A DNA stretch of 64,000 nucleotides from contig CAYWAP010000005.1 in assembly GCA_964456525.1 (NCBI GenBank), positions 963-64,962 of the forward strand. The letters are read 5' to 3'. The position numbers were made by a program, and so were the translations under genes. Origin of the DNA: an uncultured Oscillospiraceae bacterium. Its GTDB lineage: Bacteria; Bacillota; Clostridia; Oscillospirales; Oscillospiraceae. The notes under the pieces are model-generated. The model was not told the origin of the DNA and searched no databases. It was given only the letters and a program-made list of their open reading frames with translations. This document shows, piece by piece, positions 43,190 through 51,810 of this stretch. The stretch's first letter is position 1. The number at the start of each line of letters is the position of its first letter.

Positions 43190-45181
<1,992 letters not shown>

Positions 45182-45187
45182 CTACAT

Positions 45188-45859
45188 TTAGGATTCCTCC
45201 GCGCTGGAATCCGCCACGCTGCCGTTATATCCCAGCACCGCGTAGCTCTCCGGGACCTCGCCCAGGATAATCGTCTCCGCCACCGTAACCGAAGTGGAGA
45301 TTTCCTCCTCCATCACGCCGCCCGGCAGCATCAGCAGCGCCGTCCCGCTGACCACAAGCTGGATCTGGTGGAGGATCTGGTTGATGCCGGTGCTCTCAAA
45401 CGTGCTCTCAAACCGGGCGCCAATGCTGCCAAAATCCAGCACTTCCACGGCCAGCTCCGGCCCCAGCCCAGTCAGCAGGGACACCCCCAGCGCCGTTCCC
45501 AGGGGGATGTAAATATTTTCCCGGCCGGTGCCGTTGATCTGCTCTGTCACCTGGGTGATCACCGCGTTTCGCAGCCGGTTCAGCGCCGTCATGTCGGCGC
45601 TCACAGCCACCAGCTTGCCCGACTCATCGTATTGCATGGAGACGATTTCCATATCGTCCATGGACGTCAATACCTCGCTGCTCTCACAGGCCTCATCGAG
45701 CTGAATCGCAATGCGGTTTCGCAGCTCCAGACTGGCAATCTCCCCCGCCAGGGGACGAATCCGCACCTCCAGCAGGAGCAGCGCCAGTGCGGCGCATAAG
45801 AGCGGCAATAGAGCCAGGAGCCATCGCCTGTTTTTTCCACGGTACGTTCTGCGTCTCAA
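45188..45859 (-). CDS. yunB: sporulation protein YunB
   Basis: N-terminal TM, IPLGTALG...GP, FESTGINQ.LH, VAETIILGEVP. Confidence 0.85.
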   Translation of the reverse strand: MRRRTYRGKNRRWLLALLPLLCAALALLLLEVRIRPLAGEIASLELRNRIAIQLDEACESSEVLTSMDDMEIVSMQYDESGKLVAVSADMTALNRLRNAVITQVTEQINGTGRENIYIPLGTALGVSLLTGLGPELAVEVLDFGSIGARFESTFESTGINQILHQIQLVVSGTALLMLPGGVMEEEISTSVTVAETIILGEVPESYAVLGYNGSVADSSAEES

Positions 45860-45875
45860 GAAACCACCCCGGTTC

Positions 45876-45903
45876 AGGATATGCCGGATGGGGTTGTCTT
45901 GTT
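45876..45903 (-). promoter_or_regulatory. possible mother-cell (sigma-E/sigma-K-type) promoter for yunB
   Basis: minus strand AACA-16nt-CATATCCT in the gap upstream of yunB; weak match. Confidence 0.35.
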
Positions 45904-45921
45904 CCCGCAGATTGATTCCAG

Positions 45922-47184
45922 TTAGCCCTTGAGCAGTTCCTCTGCCGCCAGCATGATGCCGGTCTTGCCCGATTCATAGGTCAGCCCGCCCTGCAGATAG
46001 ACGGTGAACGGCGGACGCATGGGGGCGTCGGCAGACAACTCGATGGAAGCGCCCTGAATAAAGGCCCCTGCGGCCATAATCACCGGGCAGTCGTATCCCG
46101 GCATATCCCAGGGAACTGGGGTCACAAAGCTGTCCACCGGCGAGCCGGACTGAATGCCTTTGCAAAATTTCTCCACCGCCGCCGGCTCGTTCAGGGATAC
46201 CGTCTGAATAATGTCGTGCCGGGTCTGGTCGCTGCGGGGTTCGGTTTCATAGCCCATCAGTTCCATCATGCGGGCGCCGAAAACAGCGGTTTTCACGGCC
46301 TGGGCAACGGTGTGGGGCGCCAGAAACAGGCCCTGATACAGTGCCCGGTTGTTCCCCAGGGTGCTGCCGCACTCCCGCCCGATGCCGGGAACCGTCAGGC
46401 GCATGGCCGCCGCCTCAATCAGGTCGTGCCGCCCCGCCAGATAGCCCCCCGTCGGGGCCAGTCCTCCACCGGGATTTTTAATCAGGCTGCCTGCAATCAG
46501 GTCGGCCCCCACCTGGGAGGGTTCCGCCGTCTCCACAAACTCGCCGTAGCAGTTGTCCACGATGACCACCGCATGGGCGTTGTTTTCCCGGACAATGGCA
46601 ATCAGCTCTCCGATCTCGGCAACCGACAGCGTGGAACGGGTGGAATACCCCTTGCTGCGCTGGATGAGGACGGCTTTCACGTTCGGCTGTCGCACTGCGG
46701 CGGCAAGACCGGCCCGATCGGGCTGGTGCTCCGGCGTCACATCCACTTGCCGGTAGCCCACGCCATACGCCTTCAGGCTGCCGGGATGATCGCCCGTGAC
46801 GCCGATCACCCCCAGCAGGGTGTCATAGGGCGCGCCAACGGCGCTCACCAGCGTATCCCCCGGCTTCAACGCTGCGTACAGCGCCGATGCGATGGCGTGG
46901 GTGCCGTTGACAAACTGAATGCGAACCAGGGCGTCTTCGGTGCCAAAAATGTCCGCATAAATTTTATCCAGTTGATCCCGGCCCAAATCATCATAGCCAT
47001 AGCCGGTTGTGCCCGCAAAAAAGGCTTCGGCAACCCGGTGGTTTTGAAAGGCAGCCAAAACCTTCCGGGTGTTCCACTCAGCGATGGCGTCAATTTTGTC
47101 AAATTGAGGGGCAACGTCCTGCTGCGCCCTGGCCGACAACGCCAGGATGCGGTCAGAAAACTCGATGGGATTGCTCAGATTCAT
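45922..47184 (-). CDS. ynbB: methionine gamma-lyase family / aluminium-resistance YnbB-like protein
   Basis: GTTGYGYDDLGR, VNGTHAI, QRSKGYS, VDNCYGEF, GSLIKNPGGG. Confidence 0.88.
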   Translation of the reverse strand: MNLSNPIEFSDRILALSARAQQDVAPQFDKIDAIAEWNTRKVLAAFQNHRVAEAFFAGTTGYGYDDLGRDQLDKIYADIFGTEDALVRIQFVNGTHAIASALYAALKPGDTLVSAVGAPYDTLLGVIGVTGDHPGSLKAYGVGYRQVDVTPEHQPDRAGLAAAVRQPNVKAVLIQRSKGYSTRSTLSVAEIGELIAIVRENNAHAVVIVDNCYGEFVETAEPSQVGADLIAGSLIKNPGGGLAPTGGYLAGRHDLIEAAAMRLTVPGIGRECGSTLGNNRALYQGLFLAPHTVAQAVKTAVFGARMMELMGYETEPRSDQTRHDIIQTVSLNEPAAVEKFCKGIQSGSPVDSFVTPVPWDMPGYDCPVIMAAGAFIQGASIELSADAPMRPPFTVYLQGGLTYESGKTGIMLAAEELLKG

Positions 47185-48208
47185 TGGTATGCTCCCTTTC
47201 CATTGAACTTCCCTGCTCACAGAAGGCGGTCAGCAGCTGCACCACTGCGTCGTAATCCGATCCATGGATGCGCTCCGTGGGGGTGTGGGTGTAGCGGCAG
47301 GGAATGGAAACGCCGCCGGTCAAAATCCCCCCACGGGAAACGTGCATGGGGCCTGCGTCTGTGCCGCCGCAGGACATCAAATCCATCTGGCAGGGAATTT
47401 GATTTGCCAGAGACAGCTCTTTTAACTTCCGGATCATCTGCTCCGAACAGAGGACGCTGTGATCCATGACTTTAATGGCCGCGCCTTTACACAAGGTCGT
47501 TGTCCCCTCATGAAGCGGCCCCGGCAGGTCATCCGGACACGTTACATCCACACAGATTCCATAGTCCGGGCGAATGTCATAGCACACCGGCCCGATGCCC
47601 CGCATCCCCAGCTCTTCCTGAACCGTAAAGGCAAAGTACAGATCTGCCCCACGGCTGCGGAGGCGGTGCAAGGTCTCCACCATAGCCGCGCAGCCGGCAC
47701 GATTGTCCAGGTAGGGGGAGATCACTCTATGTCCATATTTTAAAAAAGGCGTGGCAAAGGCGGCGGTATCGCCCAGGGAGACCATGTCTCTGGCCTCCTC
47801 CTCATTTTGGGCGCCGATGTCGATATACAGGTCGCGCAGCTGCAGCGCCTTTCCCACTTTGTCCTCATCGGCGGAGATGACGCCGGTGACGCGGTTTTTG
47901 AAGCGAACCGGCGCCTGCAAAATGGAGGCCGGGTCCAGACCGCCCACCGGGGCAAAGCGCAGGAACCCCGTCTTTTCAAACCGGGTGACGACGCAGCCCA
48001 CGCTGTCCATGTGTCCGGCCAGCAGAATCTTGGGGCCGTTGCCCGAGCGGTGAATGACCAGATTCCCCATGGCGTCCTTCCACATCCCGTCGCCCTTTGT
48101 CCTGTCCAGCCCGCTGCGGCAGACACTTTCCAGCAGAGTGCTGACCTCCGCCTCATCTCCGGAGACGCCGTGCGCCGCAACCAGACTCTCCAGCAATTTG
48201 GTATCCAT
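47153..48208 (-). CDS. M42 family metallopeptidase (catalytic residues intact)
   Basis: GHMD, LDNR, QEE, VDV, HTP. Confidence 0.9.
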   Translation of the reverse strand: MDTKLLESLVAAHGVSGDEAEVSTLLESVCRSGLDRTKGDGMWKDAMGNLVIHRSGNGPKILLAGHMDSVGCVVTRFEKTGFLRFAPVGGLDPASILQAPVRFKNRVTGVISADEDKVGKALQLRDLYIDIGAQNEEEARDMVSLGDTAAFATPFLKYGHRVISPYLDNRAGCAAMVETLHRLRSRGADLYFAFTVQEELGMRGIGPVCYDIRPDYGICVDVTCPDDLPGPLHEGTTTLCKGAAIKVMDHSVLCSEQMIRKLKELSLANQIPCQMDLMSCGGTDAGPMHVSRGGILTGGVSIPCRYTHTPTERIHGSDYDAVVQLLTAFCEQGSSMEREHTNESEQSHRVF

Positions 48209-48214
48209 ATGTCT

Positions 48215-49267
48215 CTATCCTTTCACGCTGTATCCGAGATGGCTCCCCTGGGCGCGCAGCAGATCCAACATCGCCTGACAGTCCCCCAGCGAAACCACCC
48301 CCATGGGCGCCCCGCGGTAGCGCACCGGGACGGCAAGGGACGCTGCGGCCCGGCCGGCGGCCTGACGGCCATAGATGGCGGCGTTCCGGTTCCCCTCGGT
48401 TCCCTCCTGCACTTGCCAGGAAATCCCACTCTGCTGCGCTTCGCCGCGCAACTGCTCAAACAGCCCGCGGTGGAACGCGGCGTGGGCGCCATAGGGGGCG
48501 AGCACCACGCCCTTTCCCACCTGGGCACCACGGCTCGGCCCGTCCGCTCCCGGAAAATCCCAGGCGGCGCAGCCGTCCAGCGAGATGGCGCAGCCGTCAT
48601 GCCCCTCTGGCTCAGGCGAACGGGCAAAGGCCGCGCCAAAGGCGCCGCGGGCGCCGACCTCACGCTGCACGGAAAAGACAAAGGTGCAATCCGCACCCGG
48701 CGCCTCCTCCAACAGCTTCAAAAGCACCGCGCAGCCCACGCGGCTGTACAGCGCCTTCCCCCGAAACAGGCCCGCGCCAAAGGGGCCGCAGTCATCGTCA
48801 AAGACGCCGACTGTGCCCAGAGGAACCCGGCGCTTTGCCTCATCCCGTTTCCTGCATCCGATGTCAATATAGAGTTCCCTCTCTTTGGGAACCCTTGTCC
48901 GCTCCTCTTTGGTGGTCAGATGAATGGGTTTCATGCCAAAGACCCCCAGGATGCGCTCCCGACCCAGGTACACCCGCTTGCCGATCAGCTGGCGGCGATC
49001 TACAGTCCCCACACACTGAAAGCGCAGGGAGCCGTCCTGTGTATAGTCCGAAATGATGACCCCTGTCTCGTCCATGGCCGCATCCAAAATCACGGCCCGG
49101 GCGGCGGCGTCTCGCCCCCCTTTTGGGATGACGATCAAATTGCCAAGGCGGTCCGTGTGCATGCTGCCAGCATACGGCGCCGCCTTGTCGCGGATATAGT
49201 CCCGAACCGCGTCCTCATGGCCGGACACCCCCGGAAGGGCACACAGTTCCTGCAACAGCTCTACCAT
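48215..49267 (-). CDS. M42 family protein, predicted catalytically inactive
   Basis: M42 fold motifs (PGVSGHE, D.LGN, LYIDIG) but AAMDE, ALYSR, QRE and RYRGAP at the catalytic positions. Confidence 0.85.
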   Translation of the reverse strand: MVELLQELCALPGVSGHEDAVRDYIRDKAAPYAGSMHTDRLGNLIVIPKGGRDAAARAVILDAAMDETGVIISDYTQDGSLRFQCVGTVDRRQLIGKRVYLGRERILGVFGMKPIHLTTKEERTRVPKERELYIDIGCRKRDEAKRRVPLGTVGVFDDDCGPFGAGLFRGKALYSRVGCAVLLKLLEEAPGADCTFVFSVQREVGARGAFGAAFARSPEPEGHDGCAISLDGCAAWDFPGADGPSRGAQVGKGVVLAPYGAHAAFHRGLFEQLRGEAQQSGISWQVQEGTEGNRNAAIYGRQAAGRAAASLAVPVRYRGAPMGVVSLGDCQAMLDLLRAQGSHLGYSVKG

Positions 49268-50286
49268 AGGGGCGGCGCCTCCTTTCCAATGTCCCGGACG
49301 AAGGCCGCCAGCAGCCGGGCGGTCTCCTTTACGTCCTTTTCCGAAATGACCTCAAGGGGGGTGTGCATATATTTCAGCGGGATGCTGAGCACCGCGGTGG
49401 ACACCCCTTCCCGGGAAATCTGAATCTCCCAGCCGTTGGTGCCCGTGTGGCCCGACATAACCTCCACCTCATAGGAGAGGCCAAGGTCATGGCACTTGTC
49501 CTTCATCCGCTCGAACATCCAATTGGCGATGTTGGGGCCGCAGCCGATCACCGGGCCGCAGCCCAGGTCAAAGCCTTCCTCGGTGCTGTCCGCTGTCCTG
49601 CCAAAGGTGACATCCACCGCCACAGCGTAATCCGGCCGAATCCGATAGGCGGCGGTAATGGCTCCGGTGCTGTCCGTCTCCTCCCGGACGGAACCGGTGA
49701 CATACACATCCACGTCCAGCGGCTCGTGCTCCAGGCACTTCATCGCCTCCACCAGCAGCGCAAAACAGGAGCGGTCGTCCAGGGATTTCCCCGCGATCGT
49801 TCCCTCACCCAGCAAAAAGCACCCCTCCCGGAAGGAGACCGGCGTCCCCAGGGGGATGTTTGCCTCCGCCTCCTCCTGGGTGAGGCCCACGTCAATGCGA
49901 AGCTCCGCCAGGGGAACCGCCTTGTCCCCCTCCACCGCGGGACCGGCGCAGGTGACAATACCCGGGATGGGCGGCTCGGTCAGGACTGTGACCATGCGGT
50001 TTGGCAGAACCCGGGGGTCGATGCCGCCCAGCTGGAAAAAGCGCAAGAACCCCTTGTCATAGCCGGAGACGATCATGCCCACCTCGTCCAGATGGGCATC
50101 CAGCAGCATCCGCGGCGCATTCTCCCTGCCGCAGCGTTTCACGCCGATGACCGTGTGGTATGGGTCAATTTCCACCTCATCCACCCAGGGGCGCAATAGC
50201 GACACCGCTGCCTGGGCCACCGCGCGCTCAAAGCCGGCGGGGCCACACAGGGCATTCAGTTTGGAAATGGATTCATATACTGTCAA
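49261..50286 (-). CDS. M42 family metallopeptidase (catalytic residues intact)
   Basis: AHLDE, LDDR, REE, VDV, MHTP; TTG start. Confidence 0.9.
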   Translation of the reverse strand: MTVYESISKLNALCGPAGFERAVAQAAVSLLRPWVDEVEIDPYHTVIGVKRCGRENAPRMLLDAHLDEVGMIVSGYDKGFLRFFQLGGIDPRVLPNRMVTVLTEPPIPGIVTCAGPAVEGDKAVPLAELRIDVGLTQEEAEANIPLGTPVSFREGCFLLGEGTIAGKSLDDRSCFALLVEAMKCLEHEPLDVDVYVTGSVREETDSTGAITAAYRIRPDYAVAVDVTFGRTADSTEEGFDLGCGPVIGCGPNIANWMFERMKDKCHDLGLSYEVEVMSGHTGTNGWEIQISREGVSTAVLSIPLKYMHTPLEVISEKDVKETARLLAAFVRDIGKEAPPLW

Positions 50287-50365
50287 AGGAAGACACCCCT
50301 TTATCCATACGTACATGTGCGCAAAGGCGGCGGGACGCCTGCCCAGCGCCCCGCAGGGAAAGCGG

Positions 50366-51751
50366 TCACAGGGAGCGAACCAGCTCCTTAAACACGTTCC
50401 CGCGCTCCATAAAATTCTTAAAGCAATCGAAAGAGGCGCTGGCCGGGGACAAAATGACGACATCCCCCTCTTCGGCCAGTGCGGCGGCCTTATGGACAGC
50501 GCCGTCAAAGTCCTCCATCATATAGATGGGCAGCTGCTCGGGATCATAACCGGCAGCGTGAACCGCAGCGTCCCGGATTTTGACGGCCGTCGGGCCGGTC
50601 AGAACCAGGCACTTGCAGTGCTCCACCAAATCCGCCCCCATGACATCATAGGGGATGTGCTTGTCATAGCCGCCGGCGATCAGGATGACCTTCTGCCGGA
50701 AGGAGCGCAGCCCGGCCATGGTGCGGCTGGGACTGGAGGCAATGGAGTCGTTATAATATTTGACCCCGTCTTTCTCCCGAACCAGCTCAATGCGGTGCTC
50801 CACGCCGCCAAATTCCCGGGCGAATTGACGGATGACCCCGTCCGGAACCAGCCCGTCCACCGCGCCAATGGCCGCCATGTAGTTCTCCACATTGTGGACG
50901 CCGGGAATGAGAATCTGGTCAACGGGCAGAACCTGACGGGTTTCCCCATTCTTCTTGACGCAGATGACGCCGTCTTCCAGCACGACCCCCTCTTCCAGGG
51001 CGTTCTGGCGGGAAAACAGGGTGACCCCTCCCGCCGCCTGGGTGCGGAACTGGTATGTGATGTCATTGTCCCGGTTCAGAACAACCTTATCACAGGCGTG
51101 CTGGTGCAGGAAGATATTTTTCTTGGCATCGATATACTCCTGCATCCCCTTATGAACATCCAGATGGTTGGGCGCCAGATTGGTGATGACGGCAATTTCC
51201 GGGCTGCAGTCCATGGTCATCAGCTGGAAGGAGGACAGCTCCAGGACGGCAATATCCTCGGGCTTCATGGATGCGGTGTCGGGCAGCAGCGGGCGGCCAA
51301 TGTTGCCGCCCAAGTGGACGGTGTATCCCGCCGCCTCCAGCAGTTTGGCGATGATCGTGGTTGTGGTGGTCTTGCCGTCAGAGCCGGTGACGGCGATGCG
51401 CTTGCAGGGACACACCTGGAAAAAGACCTCCATCTCCGAGGTAATCCGGCTGCCCCGTGTGCGCGCCGCCTCAAAGGCCGGAATATCGGGCCGGATGCCC
51501 GGGGAGCGGAAAATCACATCCTGATCCAGCCCCTCCAGATAATCCTCCCCCAGCTTCAATGTTGCCCCCAGTTCGGTCAGCTCGTCCAACAGGGCATTGT
51601 CCCCAAAGGCCTCCCGGCTCTTCCTGTCGCAGGCGGTGACGGAAATGCCCCGCTGCAAGAGCAGCTTGATGAGCGGAGTATTGCTGACGCCAATGCCGAT
51701 AATGGCAACGGTTTGATTCTCTAAGGACGTCAAATATTCTTCAAAGGTCAT
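50366..51751 (-). CDS. murD: UDP-N-acetylmuramoyl-L-alanine--D-glutamate ligase
   Basis: RSPG, TGSDGKTTTT, GGNIG, ELSSFQL, NHLD.H, HRIE, NDSIAS, SPASASFD. Confidence 0.95.
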   Translation of the reverse strand: MTFEEYLTSLENQTVAIIGIGVSNTPLIKLLLQRGISVTACDRKSREAFGDNALLDELTELGATLKLGEDYLEGLDQDVIFRSPGIRPDIPAFEAARTRGSRITSEMEVFFQVCPCKRIAVTGSDGKTTTTTIIAKLLEAAGYTVHLGGNIGRPLLPDTASMKPEDIAVLELSSFQLMTMDCSPEIAVITNLAPNHLDVHKGMQEYIDAKKNIFLHQHACDKVVLNRDNDITYQFRTQAAGGVTLFSRQNALEEGVVLEDGVICVKKNGETRQVLPVDQILIPGVHNVENYMAAIGAVDGLVPDGVIRQFAREFGGVEHRIELVREKDGVKYYNDSIASSPSRTMAGLRSFRQKVILIAGGYDKHIPYDVMGADLVEHCKCLVLTGPTAVKIRDAAVHAAGYDPEQLPIYMMEDFDGAVHKAAALAEEGDVVILSPASASFDCFKNFMERGNVFKELVRSL

Positions 51752-51781: not shown

Positions 51782-51810
51782 ATTATAGCCCATCATGTAC
51801 CTGATTTCAA
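51782..51810 (-). promoter_or_regulatory. sigma-A promoter for the murD operon
   Basis: minus strand TTGAAA-17bp-TATAAT. Confidence 0.7.

Follow-up and report, generated by a model that had tools for sequence, protein, structure and literature searches.

A retained M42 pseudo-enzyme between two intact paralogs in an Oscillospiraceae genome, and its possible role as a non-catalytic partner subunit

Aminopeptidases of the TET/M42 type are treated as homo-oligomers, and where several paralogs are considered to mix, all of them are taken to be active. In Pyrococcus horikoshii, PhTET2 and PhTET3 form heterododecamers in which the subunit mix tunes activity (PMC4220976), and in Bacillus subtilis in-cell crosslinks support a dimer of the paralogs YtoP and YsdC (PMC10090944; integrative model 9a5r). 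This study concerns three adjacent M42 genes, here called A, B and C, carried by an uncultured Oscillospiraceae bacterium (contig CAYWAP010000005.1) on a stretch of 64,000 nucleotides, hereafter the window. The outer two genes are intact, whereas the middle one has lost most of its active site. Our analysis indicates that B is very probably a pseudo-enzyme held under purifying selection, and we give a probability of roughly 60% to the reading that it joins its live paralogs, that is, those with a complete catalytic set, in a heteromeric M42 assembly as a subunit without catalytic function. The three genes are as follows.

49261-50286, minus strand: M42 gene A, 341 amino acids, TTG start, PF05343 score 208 bits
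48215-49267, minus strand: M42 gene B, 350 amino acids, PF05343 score 170 bits
47153-48208, minus strand: M42 gene C, 351 amino acids, PF05343 score 255 bits

With regard to the closest known systems, the pair PhTET2 and PhTET3 resembles the proposed arrangement in that its two M42 paralogs share one tetrahedral 12-mer. Each archaeal subunit is an active enzyme, however, and the particles are built from homodimers, whereas B has no metal site and its co-assembly with A or C is a proposal. The ytoP and ysdC genes of B. subtilis are not known to be adjacent. Their products are likewise two bacterial M42 paralogs, modelled as a heterodimer, but no loss of catalytic residues is reported for either of them (PMC10090944). 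By sequence, the best PDB match of A is 1vho, that of B is TM1049 of Thermotoga maritima (2fvg), and that of C is PhTET2 (1y0r), followed by TM1050 of T. maritima, also known as TmPep1050 (3isx, 4p6y). PDB titles confirm the identity of tm1049 and TM1050. In the alignment, TM1049 differs from B in having kept all catalytic residues. We take 1vho to be TM1048, in which case the trio of the window is collinear with a three-gene module of Thermotoga. Outside the family, the inactive beta subunits of the eukaryotic 20S proteasome and the plastid ClpR proteins are catalytically dead paralogs that a hetero-oligomeric protease chamber needs as structural components. These belong to other folds and catalytic types, and co-assembly is demonstrated there. 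No description of dead M42 subunits or of double-M42 fusions was found in the literature searched. What the window adds is a dead gene that is the middle, TM1049-type one, a genus-level series from one shift to three independent erosions, the repeated replacement of Glu by Arg or Lys, and the evidence from fusion proteins.

All three proteins cover the whole Pfam profile PF05343 (Peptidase_M42; cut-off 23.2 bits), from position 1 or 5 to position 292, and none of them reaches an NCBIfam equivalog cut-off. They are the only M42 genes of the genome (1.83 Mb assembly, 83 contigs, scored 100% complete). Relatives of the proteins of this genome carry the labels Clostridiales or Oscillospiraceae, and one protein among the same-genus sequences in the tree is labelled Candidatus Onthomonas. 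An earlier note, made from this DNA alone, had described three M42 reading frames that overlap or lie 6 nt apart, the outer two with all motifs intact (AHLDE/LDDR/REE/VDV/MHTP in A and GHMD/LDNR/QEE/VDV/HTP in C) and the middle one reading AAMDE, ALYSR, QRE, RYRGAP and GNRNA. Each of these points was confirmed: the start of B and the stop of A overlap by 7 nt (ATGGTAG), and 6 nt separate the stop of B from the start of C.

The catalytic set was scored as the seven residues H, D, D, E, E, D/E and H, the M42-defining criterion of PMC12516491, and was mapped in alignments of A, B and C that also included solved M42 structures. The set is H-D-D-E-E-D-H in A and C, which have kept all seven catalytic and metal-binding residues. 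B reads A-D-Y-R-E-D-G and lacks four of the seven (H64A, D174Y, E202R and H319G), so that it falls outside M42 as defined in this way. The losses comprise three of the five metal ligands (H64, the bridging D174 and H319) together with the catalytic Glu202, whereas D66, E203 and D231 are retained. The GGTD loop of live orthologs has become GNRN. As judged from its residues, B would be an M42 homolog by fold and not an M42 peptidase in the functional sense. The latest family-wide survey of M42 requires all seven residues for inclusion (PMC12516491), and dead members are therefore filtered out by design.

The fold itself appears to be preserved. An AlphaFold2 model of B built from 55 homologs reached a mean predicted local distance difference test (pLDDT) score of 87 and a predicted template modelling (pTM) score of 0.89. 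With this model, Foldseek gave template modelling scores of 0.85-0.90 to 4p6y, 9qr6, 1xfo and 1y0r over about 345-350 columns, and the whole-chain matches included TmPep1050, the Methanocaldococcus jannaschii TET protease, PhTET2 and the YtoP-YsdC model (9a5r). The model thus predicts that B keeps the two-domain M42 fold, with a catalytic domain and a PDZ-like dimerisation domain. A structural criterion of PMC12516491 is a set of five conserved glycines; glycines that are invariant in the B alignment include G42, G69, G79, G87, G205 and G208. Also among the Foldseek matches were a dimeric form of TmPep1050 (5ne6) and its mutants H60A, H307A and H60A/H307A (5ne7, 5ne8 and 5ne9), which are laboratory counterparts of the natural H64A and H319G of B. 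These mutants are engineered variants of a single protein and not evolved partners, and B carries E202R and D174Y in addition.

A search of 5.8 billion proteins returned seven sequences from other metagenomes that are 55-78% identical to B. Across these and B itself, E202R and the loss of H64 and D174 are found in all eight, and H319 is lost in seven of the eight. The replacements vary within this dead clade: H64 has become A, P or G, D174 has become Y, G or R, and the H319 position holds G, N, R, K, Q or H. Six contigs were available for five of the seven relatives, and each of them shows the same A-B(-C)-ynbB context, with A overlapping B by 4-7 nt; C, ynbB, yunB and ligA come next wherever the contig extends that far. 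A (on five metagenome contigs) and C are intact wherever they are present. For three relatives, the identities of A, B and C to the window are 84, 78 and 83%, 73, 66 and 77%, and 70, 55 and 66%, respectively, so B appears to evolve faster than A and C, but not by much.

The pairwise ratio of nonsynonymous to synonymous substitution rates (dN/dS) of B is 0.13-0.19, with bootstrap intervals spanning 0.12-0.25; between the window and its nearest relative (L036) it is 0.17 (95% bootstrap interval 0.12-0.23). Maximum-likelihood codon models (GY+F3X4) gave the following values of the corresponding parameter, omega, for the clade of the window (T3), for two other degenerate clades of the same genus (T1 and T2, described below) and for genomes with a live B.

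Clade of the window, T3: A 0.098, B 0.122, C 0.088
Degenerate clade T1: A 0.094, B 0.105, C 0.054
Degenerate clade T2: A 0.045, B 0.098, C 0.078
Genomes with live B: A 0.076, B 0.070, C 0.065

The loss of catalysis would accordingly have raised omega of B by about half and left the gene strongly constrained. These values bear directly on whether B could be a slowly and neutrally decaying pseudogene whose frame has stayed open by chance. Four catalytic losses would be expected of such a gene, chance stop codons are few in a G+C-rich genome, and B does diverge somewhat faster than A and C (78% against 83-84%, 66% against 73-77% and 55% against 66-72%). Nevertheless, the frame is open and full length in all eight members of the clade and in nine further degenerate orthologs, the AlphaFold2 model is confident, and omega is 0.12 with an upper bootstrap bound of dN/dS of 0.25. 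We regard neutral decay as extremely unlikely. Simple decay is rejected because omega is 0.10-0.12, dN/dS does not exceed 0.25 at its upper bound, and the losses are common to the eight clade members. This agrees with the earlier note, which had preferred a retained full-length pseudo-enzyme to simple decay and had pointed to orthologous trios as the place to look: E202R and the losses of H64 and D174 do recur there under purifying selection. It had also named two observations that would speak for the opposite, an intact middle gene in close relatives and neutral evolution of this copy. The first was indeed made, as described below for the genus, but this copy does not evolve neutrally. A non-catalytic M42 paralog can evidently stay under strong selection for long periods.

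The distribution of constraint along B was compared between the dead clade and a live clade of similar overall divergence (mean pairwise identity 0.62 and 0.68). Residues 61-135, which form the dimerisation or PDZ-like domain, show pairwise identities of 0.74-0.82 in the dead clade and 0.63-0.75 in the live one. Residues 196-210, around R202-E203, reach 0.97 in the dead clade against 0.86 in the live one. Residues 211-315, the half that holds the pocket and metal site, fall to 0.40-0.56 in the dead clade against 0.59-0.75 in the live one. Relaxation is limited to the C-terminal half of the catalytic domain of B, and the dimerisation domain is still conserved, at least as well as in live B. Such a pattern would be expected of a protein that depends on its interfaces and core but has no further need of its substrate pocket.

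The same comparison informs two other explanations. B could still be catalytic through a remodelled site, mononuclear or metal-independent, made up of D66, E203, D231 and R202. Three acidic residues and a conserved Arg do remain, and the segment around R202-E203 is the most conserved part of the dead clade (0.97). On the other hand, B lacks three of the five metal ligands as well as the general base, the varying substitutions at H64, D174 and H319 fit positions that have ceased to matter, and the GGTD substrate loop is scrambled, so we consider a remodelled catalytic site quite improbable. Alternatively, B could have been neofunctionalised into a stand-alone protein that retains self-association along with the M42 fold but works independently of A and C: it might bind or sequester peptides without hydrolysing them, have a regulatory function or form a decoy homo-oligomer. 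Purifying selection fits any retained function; the invariant Arg202 and the clade-specific conserved W236, Y259 and F265 in the old pocket could line a new site; and the crystallised ligand mutants and dimeric form of TmPep1050 (5ne6-5ne9) indicate that ligand-less forms still fold. However, the half that contained the pocket is the least conserved part in the dead clade, contrary to what a new ligand site would require. Dead M42 domains, moreover, recur covalently fused to live ones, as detailed below, and B always lies inside an A-B-C array, in the 24 same-genus genomes as well as on the six metagenome contigs. A stand-alone role is a real but unlikely alternative.

The history of the losses was followed in 24 genomes of the same genus and in five same-order outgroup genomes. 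Three adjacent M42 genes in the order A-B-C are present in all 24 same-genus genomes and in several of the same order. In each same-genus locus the end of A and the start of B share 1-16 nt, and the spacing of B and C lies between -4 and +23 nt. An intact B occurs in 15 of the 24 same-genus genomes and in all same-order outgroups, and a degenerate one in the other nine. A and C, in contrast, show no ligand loss in any locus examined (24 same-genus, five same-order and the metagenome contigs where they are present). The degenerate genes fall into types. T1 (five genomes) has E203 replaced by L, M or Q, plus sporadic other losses. T2 (four genomes) has D174S, E231G/S and H319R and keeps the Glu-Glu pair and H64. 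T3 is the type of the window, defined by E202R. T1 and T3 are joined both in the B tree (support 99/93) and in an independent tree of concatenated A and C (100/99), whereas T2 branches as their sister in the B tree (90/89) but has no resolved position in the A and C tree.

By parsimony, the ancestor of T1 and T3 would still have had every ligand, and T2 lost different residues, so that three clades would have erased the metal site independently. A single inactivating event for all degenerate B genes is ruled out at the level of the ligands for the same reasons. Around the site, however, T1, T2 and T3 have derived residues in common at positions that are invariant in live B, namely V93T, D175S/G, E231D/G, T233, T234, A236, V247, G293 and S323, and these point to one earlier functional shift. 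The simplest history would therefore be one ancestral shift that made catalysis by B dispensable, followed by three different erosions.

To place these losses in the wider family, B was searched against 1.84 billion representatives of clusters at 50% identity, and the nearest 142 full-length representatives and fusion halves were scored. The catalytic set is complete in 99 of the 142 and incomplete in 43, a share of dead sequences that is probably inflated, in contrast to their recurrence, by the query itself being dead. Lys or Arg occupies position 202 in 14 of the 43. On a rough FastTree phylogeny of the 142 sequences, there are at least 10 changes between live and dead, five of which are forced by well-supported branches.

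The search also returned proteins of 670-790 amino acids with two M42 domains, and many more were found in a dedicated search. These fusions are no artefacts, since several of them are encoded on complete genomes of cultured Caproicibacterium strains and are deposited under NCBI accessions. Four kinds can be distinguished.

Live A-like half followed by live B-like half: many, the majority of fusions
Live half with a half carrying E202G or E202D (Caproicibacterium lactatifermentans and relatives), or with a more degenerate half (P0307)
Live half with a fully dead half: P0181, P0333 and P0335
Dead half followed by a live half: about 20 clusters

The domain order in fusions that join A to B is the gene order of the window. 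WP_086034955.1 of C. lactatifermentans (717 amino acids), for instance, has an A-like and then a B-like domain with E202G in the latter; it differs from the window in that about 30 residues join the domains covalently and in that the B half keeps its metal ligands. An AlphaFold2 model of a natural A-B fusion (locus L042) has a pLDDT of 90.7 and a pTM of 0.89, with a disordered linker of 23 residues; such a pTM value would imply that the two halves pack in a defined way. It is difficult to see why a dead M42 domain should be tethered to a live one if they did not work together, and the fusions argue that dead M42 paralogs act bound to a live one. The relatives of the Caproicibacterium fusion had been expected to be fused as well. 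This expectation failed, since only L042 among 80 loci is fused, the rest having separate genes, A and a second M42 gene, which are live where readable. The Caproicibacterium type of fusion is accordingly narrow, and other fusion families are plentiful in the wider search. A separate, diverse family of double-M42 proteins of about 690-760 amino acids (P0390-P0413) has a dead N-terminal half, reading for example G-D-A-R-S at the first five catalytic positions, and an intact C-terminal half. Its Joint Genome Institute label is putative aminopeptidase FrvX.

Taken with the gene arrangement, these observations suggest that B has been retained because the live M42 paralogs of the adjoining genes have it as their structural partner. 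The idea of a heteromeric particle, which the earlier note had raised, is supported indirectly, by the overlapping or abutting genes, the live-dead fusions and the published co-assembly of paralogs. The most likely partner of B is A, to which it is coupled in translation. Either the two proteins would form a dimer-type building block together, or dimers of B would enter a mixed dodecamer. In the proposed mechanism, co-translated B would bind a live paralog through its conserved PDZ-like dimerisation domain and core, and the resulting particle would have fewer or rearranged active sites, which could tune its specificity, processivity or assembly. The invariant Arg202, situated among D66, E203 and D231, could neutralise the empty metal site; in relatives, Arg or Lys is also found at other positions that once held a ligand. 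This charge compensation could let B fold and its interfaces hold without metal.

Several points weigh against a partner role. The fusions belong to other lineages and are mostly live-live. Binding of metal reportedly drives M42 proteins from the dimer to the dodecamer (Dutoit 2019, cited in PMC7948507), and the catalytic residues have been termed essential for structural integrity (PMC12516491). B has lost ligands, and a metal-free B may therefore be unable to enter or build a dodecamer itself. If it may not build a particle alone, this fits a partner role and equally well a separate B dimer. The PhTET2/PhTET3 particles are assembled from homodimers and not from heterodimers (PMC4220976). The dN/dS values indicate that B is needed, but not for what. 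The genes are also tightly packed where B is live, so that a scaffold role is not singled out by the packing. The association of A, B and C, and the membership of C in one particle, is a proposal drawn from genes and sequences.

If B is indeed a partner subunit, there is a class of regulatory or structural subunits in the TET particles of bacteria, comparable to the inactive subunits of proteasomes and Clp proteases. This would matter for annotation, which currently reads "M42 family metallopeptidase", for peptide turnover in gut Clostridia and for the bypass of metal-dependent assembly. A broader proposal can be advanced, tentatively and with more doubt than belief: dead M42 paralogs might be widespread, repeatedly evolved non-catalytic TET subunits in which a basic side chain, Arg or Lys at the position of the catalytic Glu or of a ligand, replaces the metal, which assemble metal-free and which, as modules for assembly or gating, determine the number and identity of the active sites facing the chamber. 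If this were true, the genus of the window would have captured the transition, one ancestral shift followed by three erasures of the metal site.

The trio lies between a murein gene and a gene for an enzyme dependent on pyridoxal phosphate (PLP). The features next to the trio are as follows.

50366-51751, minus strand: murD, UDP-N-acetylmuramoylalanine-D-glutamate ligase, stop at 50366, start at 51751 estimated
45922-47184, minus strand: ynbB-type PLP enzyme (PF06838, Met_gamma_lyase family), identified from the open reading frame and from Pfam labels on orthologous contigs
51782-51810, minus strand: sigma-70-like promoter upstream of murD, TTGAAA, 17 nt spacer, TATAAT, 11 of 12 matches

Terminator-like sites between 43000 and 52500 are no more frequent than expected from shuffled sequence, and murD-A-B-C-ynbB-yunB-ligA (43190-51751) may form one transcript, which the promoter-like site ahead of murD could drive. 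All 24 same-genus loci have the 3' end of murD upstream of A, as do several of the same order and about 65 of the 80 Oscillospirales loci from elsewhere in the order. Downstream of C, ynbB is present in all 24 same-genus loci, and the same frame is found in most of the 80. In most of these 80 further Oscillospirales species, a two-gene M42 module lies between murD and ynbB. Loci L043-L121 (Caproiciproducens, Anaeromassilibacillus, the Eubacterium coprostanoligenes group and others) have A and one B/C-like gene, both live where readable, and about 0.7-1 kb of unassigned sequence before ynbB, which is too short for a third M42 gene. The junction of murD and A is not inviolable: in locus L037 (683-1153), a gene for a Gcn5-related N-acetyltransferase (GNAT) is inserted between them.

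From the adjoining murD, the earlier note had further suggested a possible tie of the particle to peptidoglycan-peptide recycling; in a stricter form of this idea, the whole trio, including B, would serve to recycle stem peptides. The position of murD directly before A in all 24 same-genus loci and most of the 80 others, with one promoter-like site ahead of murD and no convincing terminator after it, is consistent with such a link. This is synteny only, however, and it is interrupted by the GNAT gene in one close relative. The collinear Thermotoga-type trio, like characterised M42 enzymes, uses ordinary L-aminoacyl substrates (PMC3511314). Neither a fusion nor a report in the literature was found that would tie M42 to murein enzymes, and the one fusion of M42 to a neighbouring gene that was encountered is to ynbB. 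A devotion to peptidoglycan recycling is therefore highly doubtful, and the suggestion found no support beyond the conserved position of murD.

As a neighbour, ynbB is tighter and more suggestive than murD, and it directly adjoins the M42 genes in more than 100 genomes. P0337, a metagenomic protein of 757 amino acids, fuses an M42 domain to a PF06838 domain, and this fusion, together with the conserved position of ynbB after the M42 module, hints that YnbB might act on products of the peptidases. The constant pairing of this PLP enzyme with the peptidases is a lead to the function of YnbB.

A few features of the outer genes deserve mention. A has an AAAGGGG ribosome-binding site ahead of its TTG start. 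The residue before its Glu-Glu pair varies across lineages (R, G, F, C, L or Q), whereas in B and C it is nearly always Q, and the GGTD loop takes a form particular to A, TGTN. Its sequence suggests that A is a distinct M42 subtype. C carries a C-terminal extension of about 20 amino acids that is absent from its orthologs (329-334 amino acids). Its stop lies 32 nt inside ynbB (overlap 47153-47184), the ATG of which is at 47184, behind a GGAAAGGGAG ribosome-binding site; the stop codon of C seems to have moved downstream in the lineage of the window.

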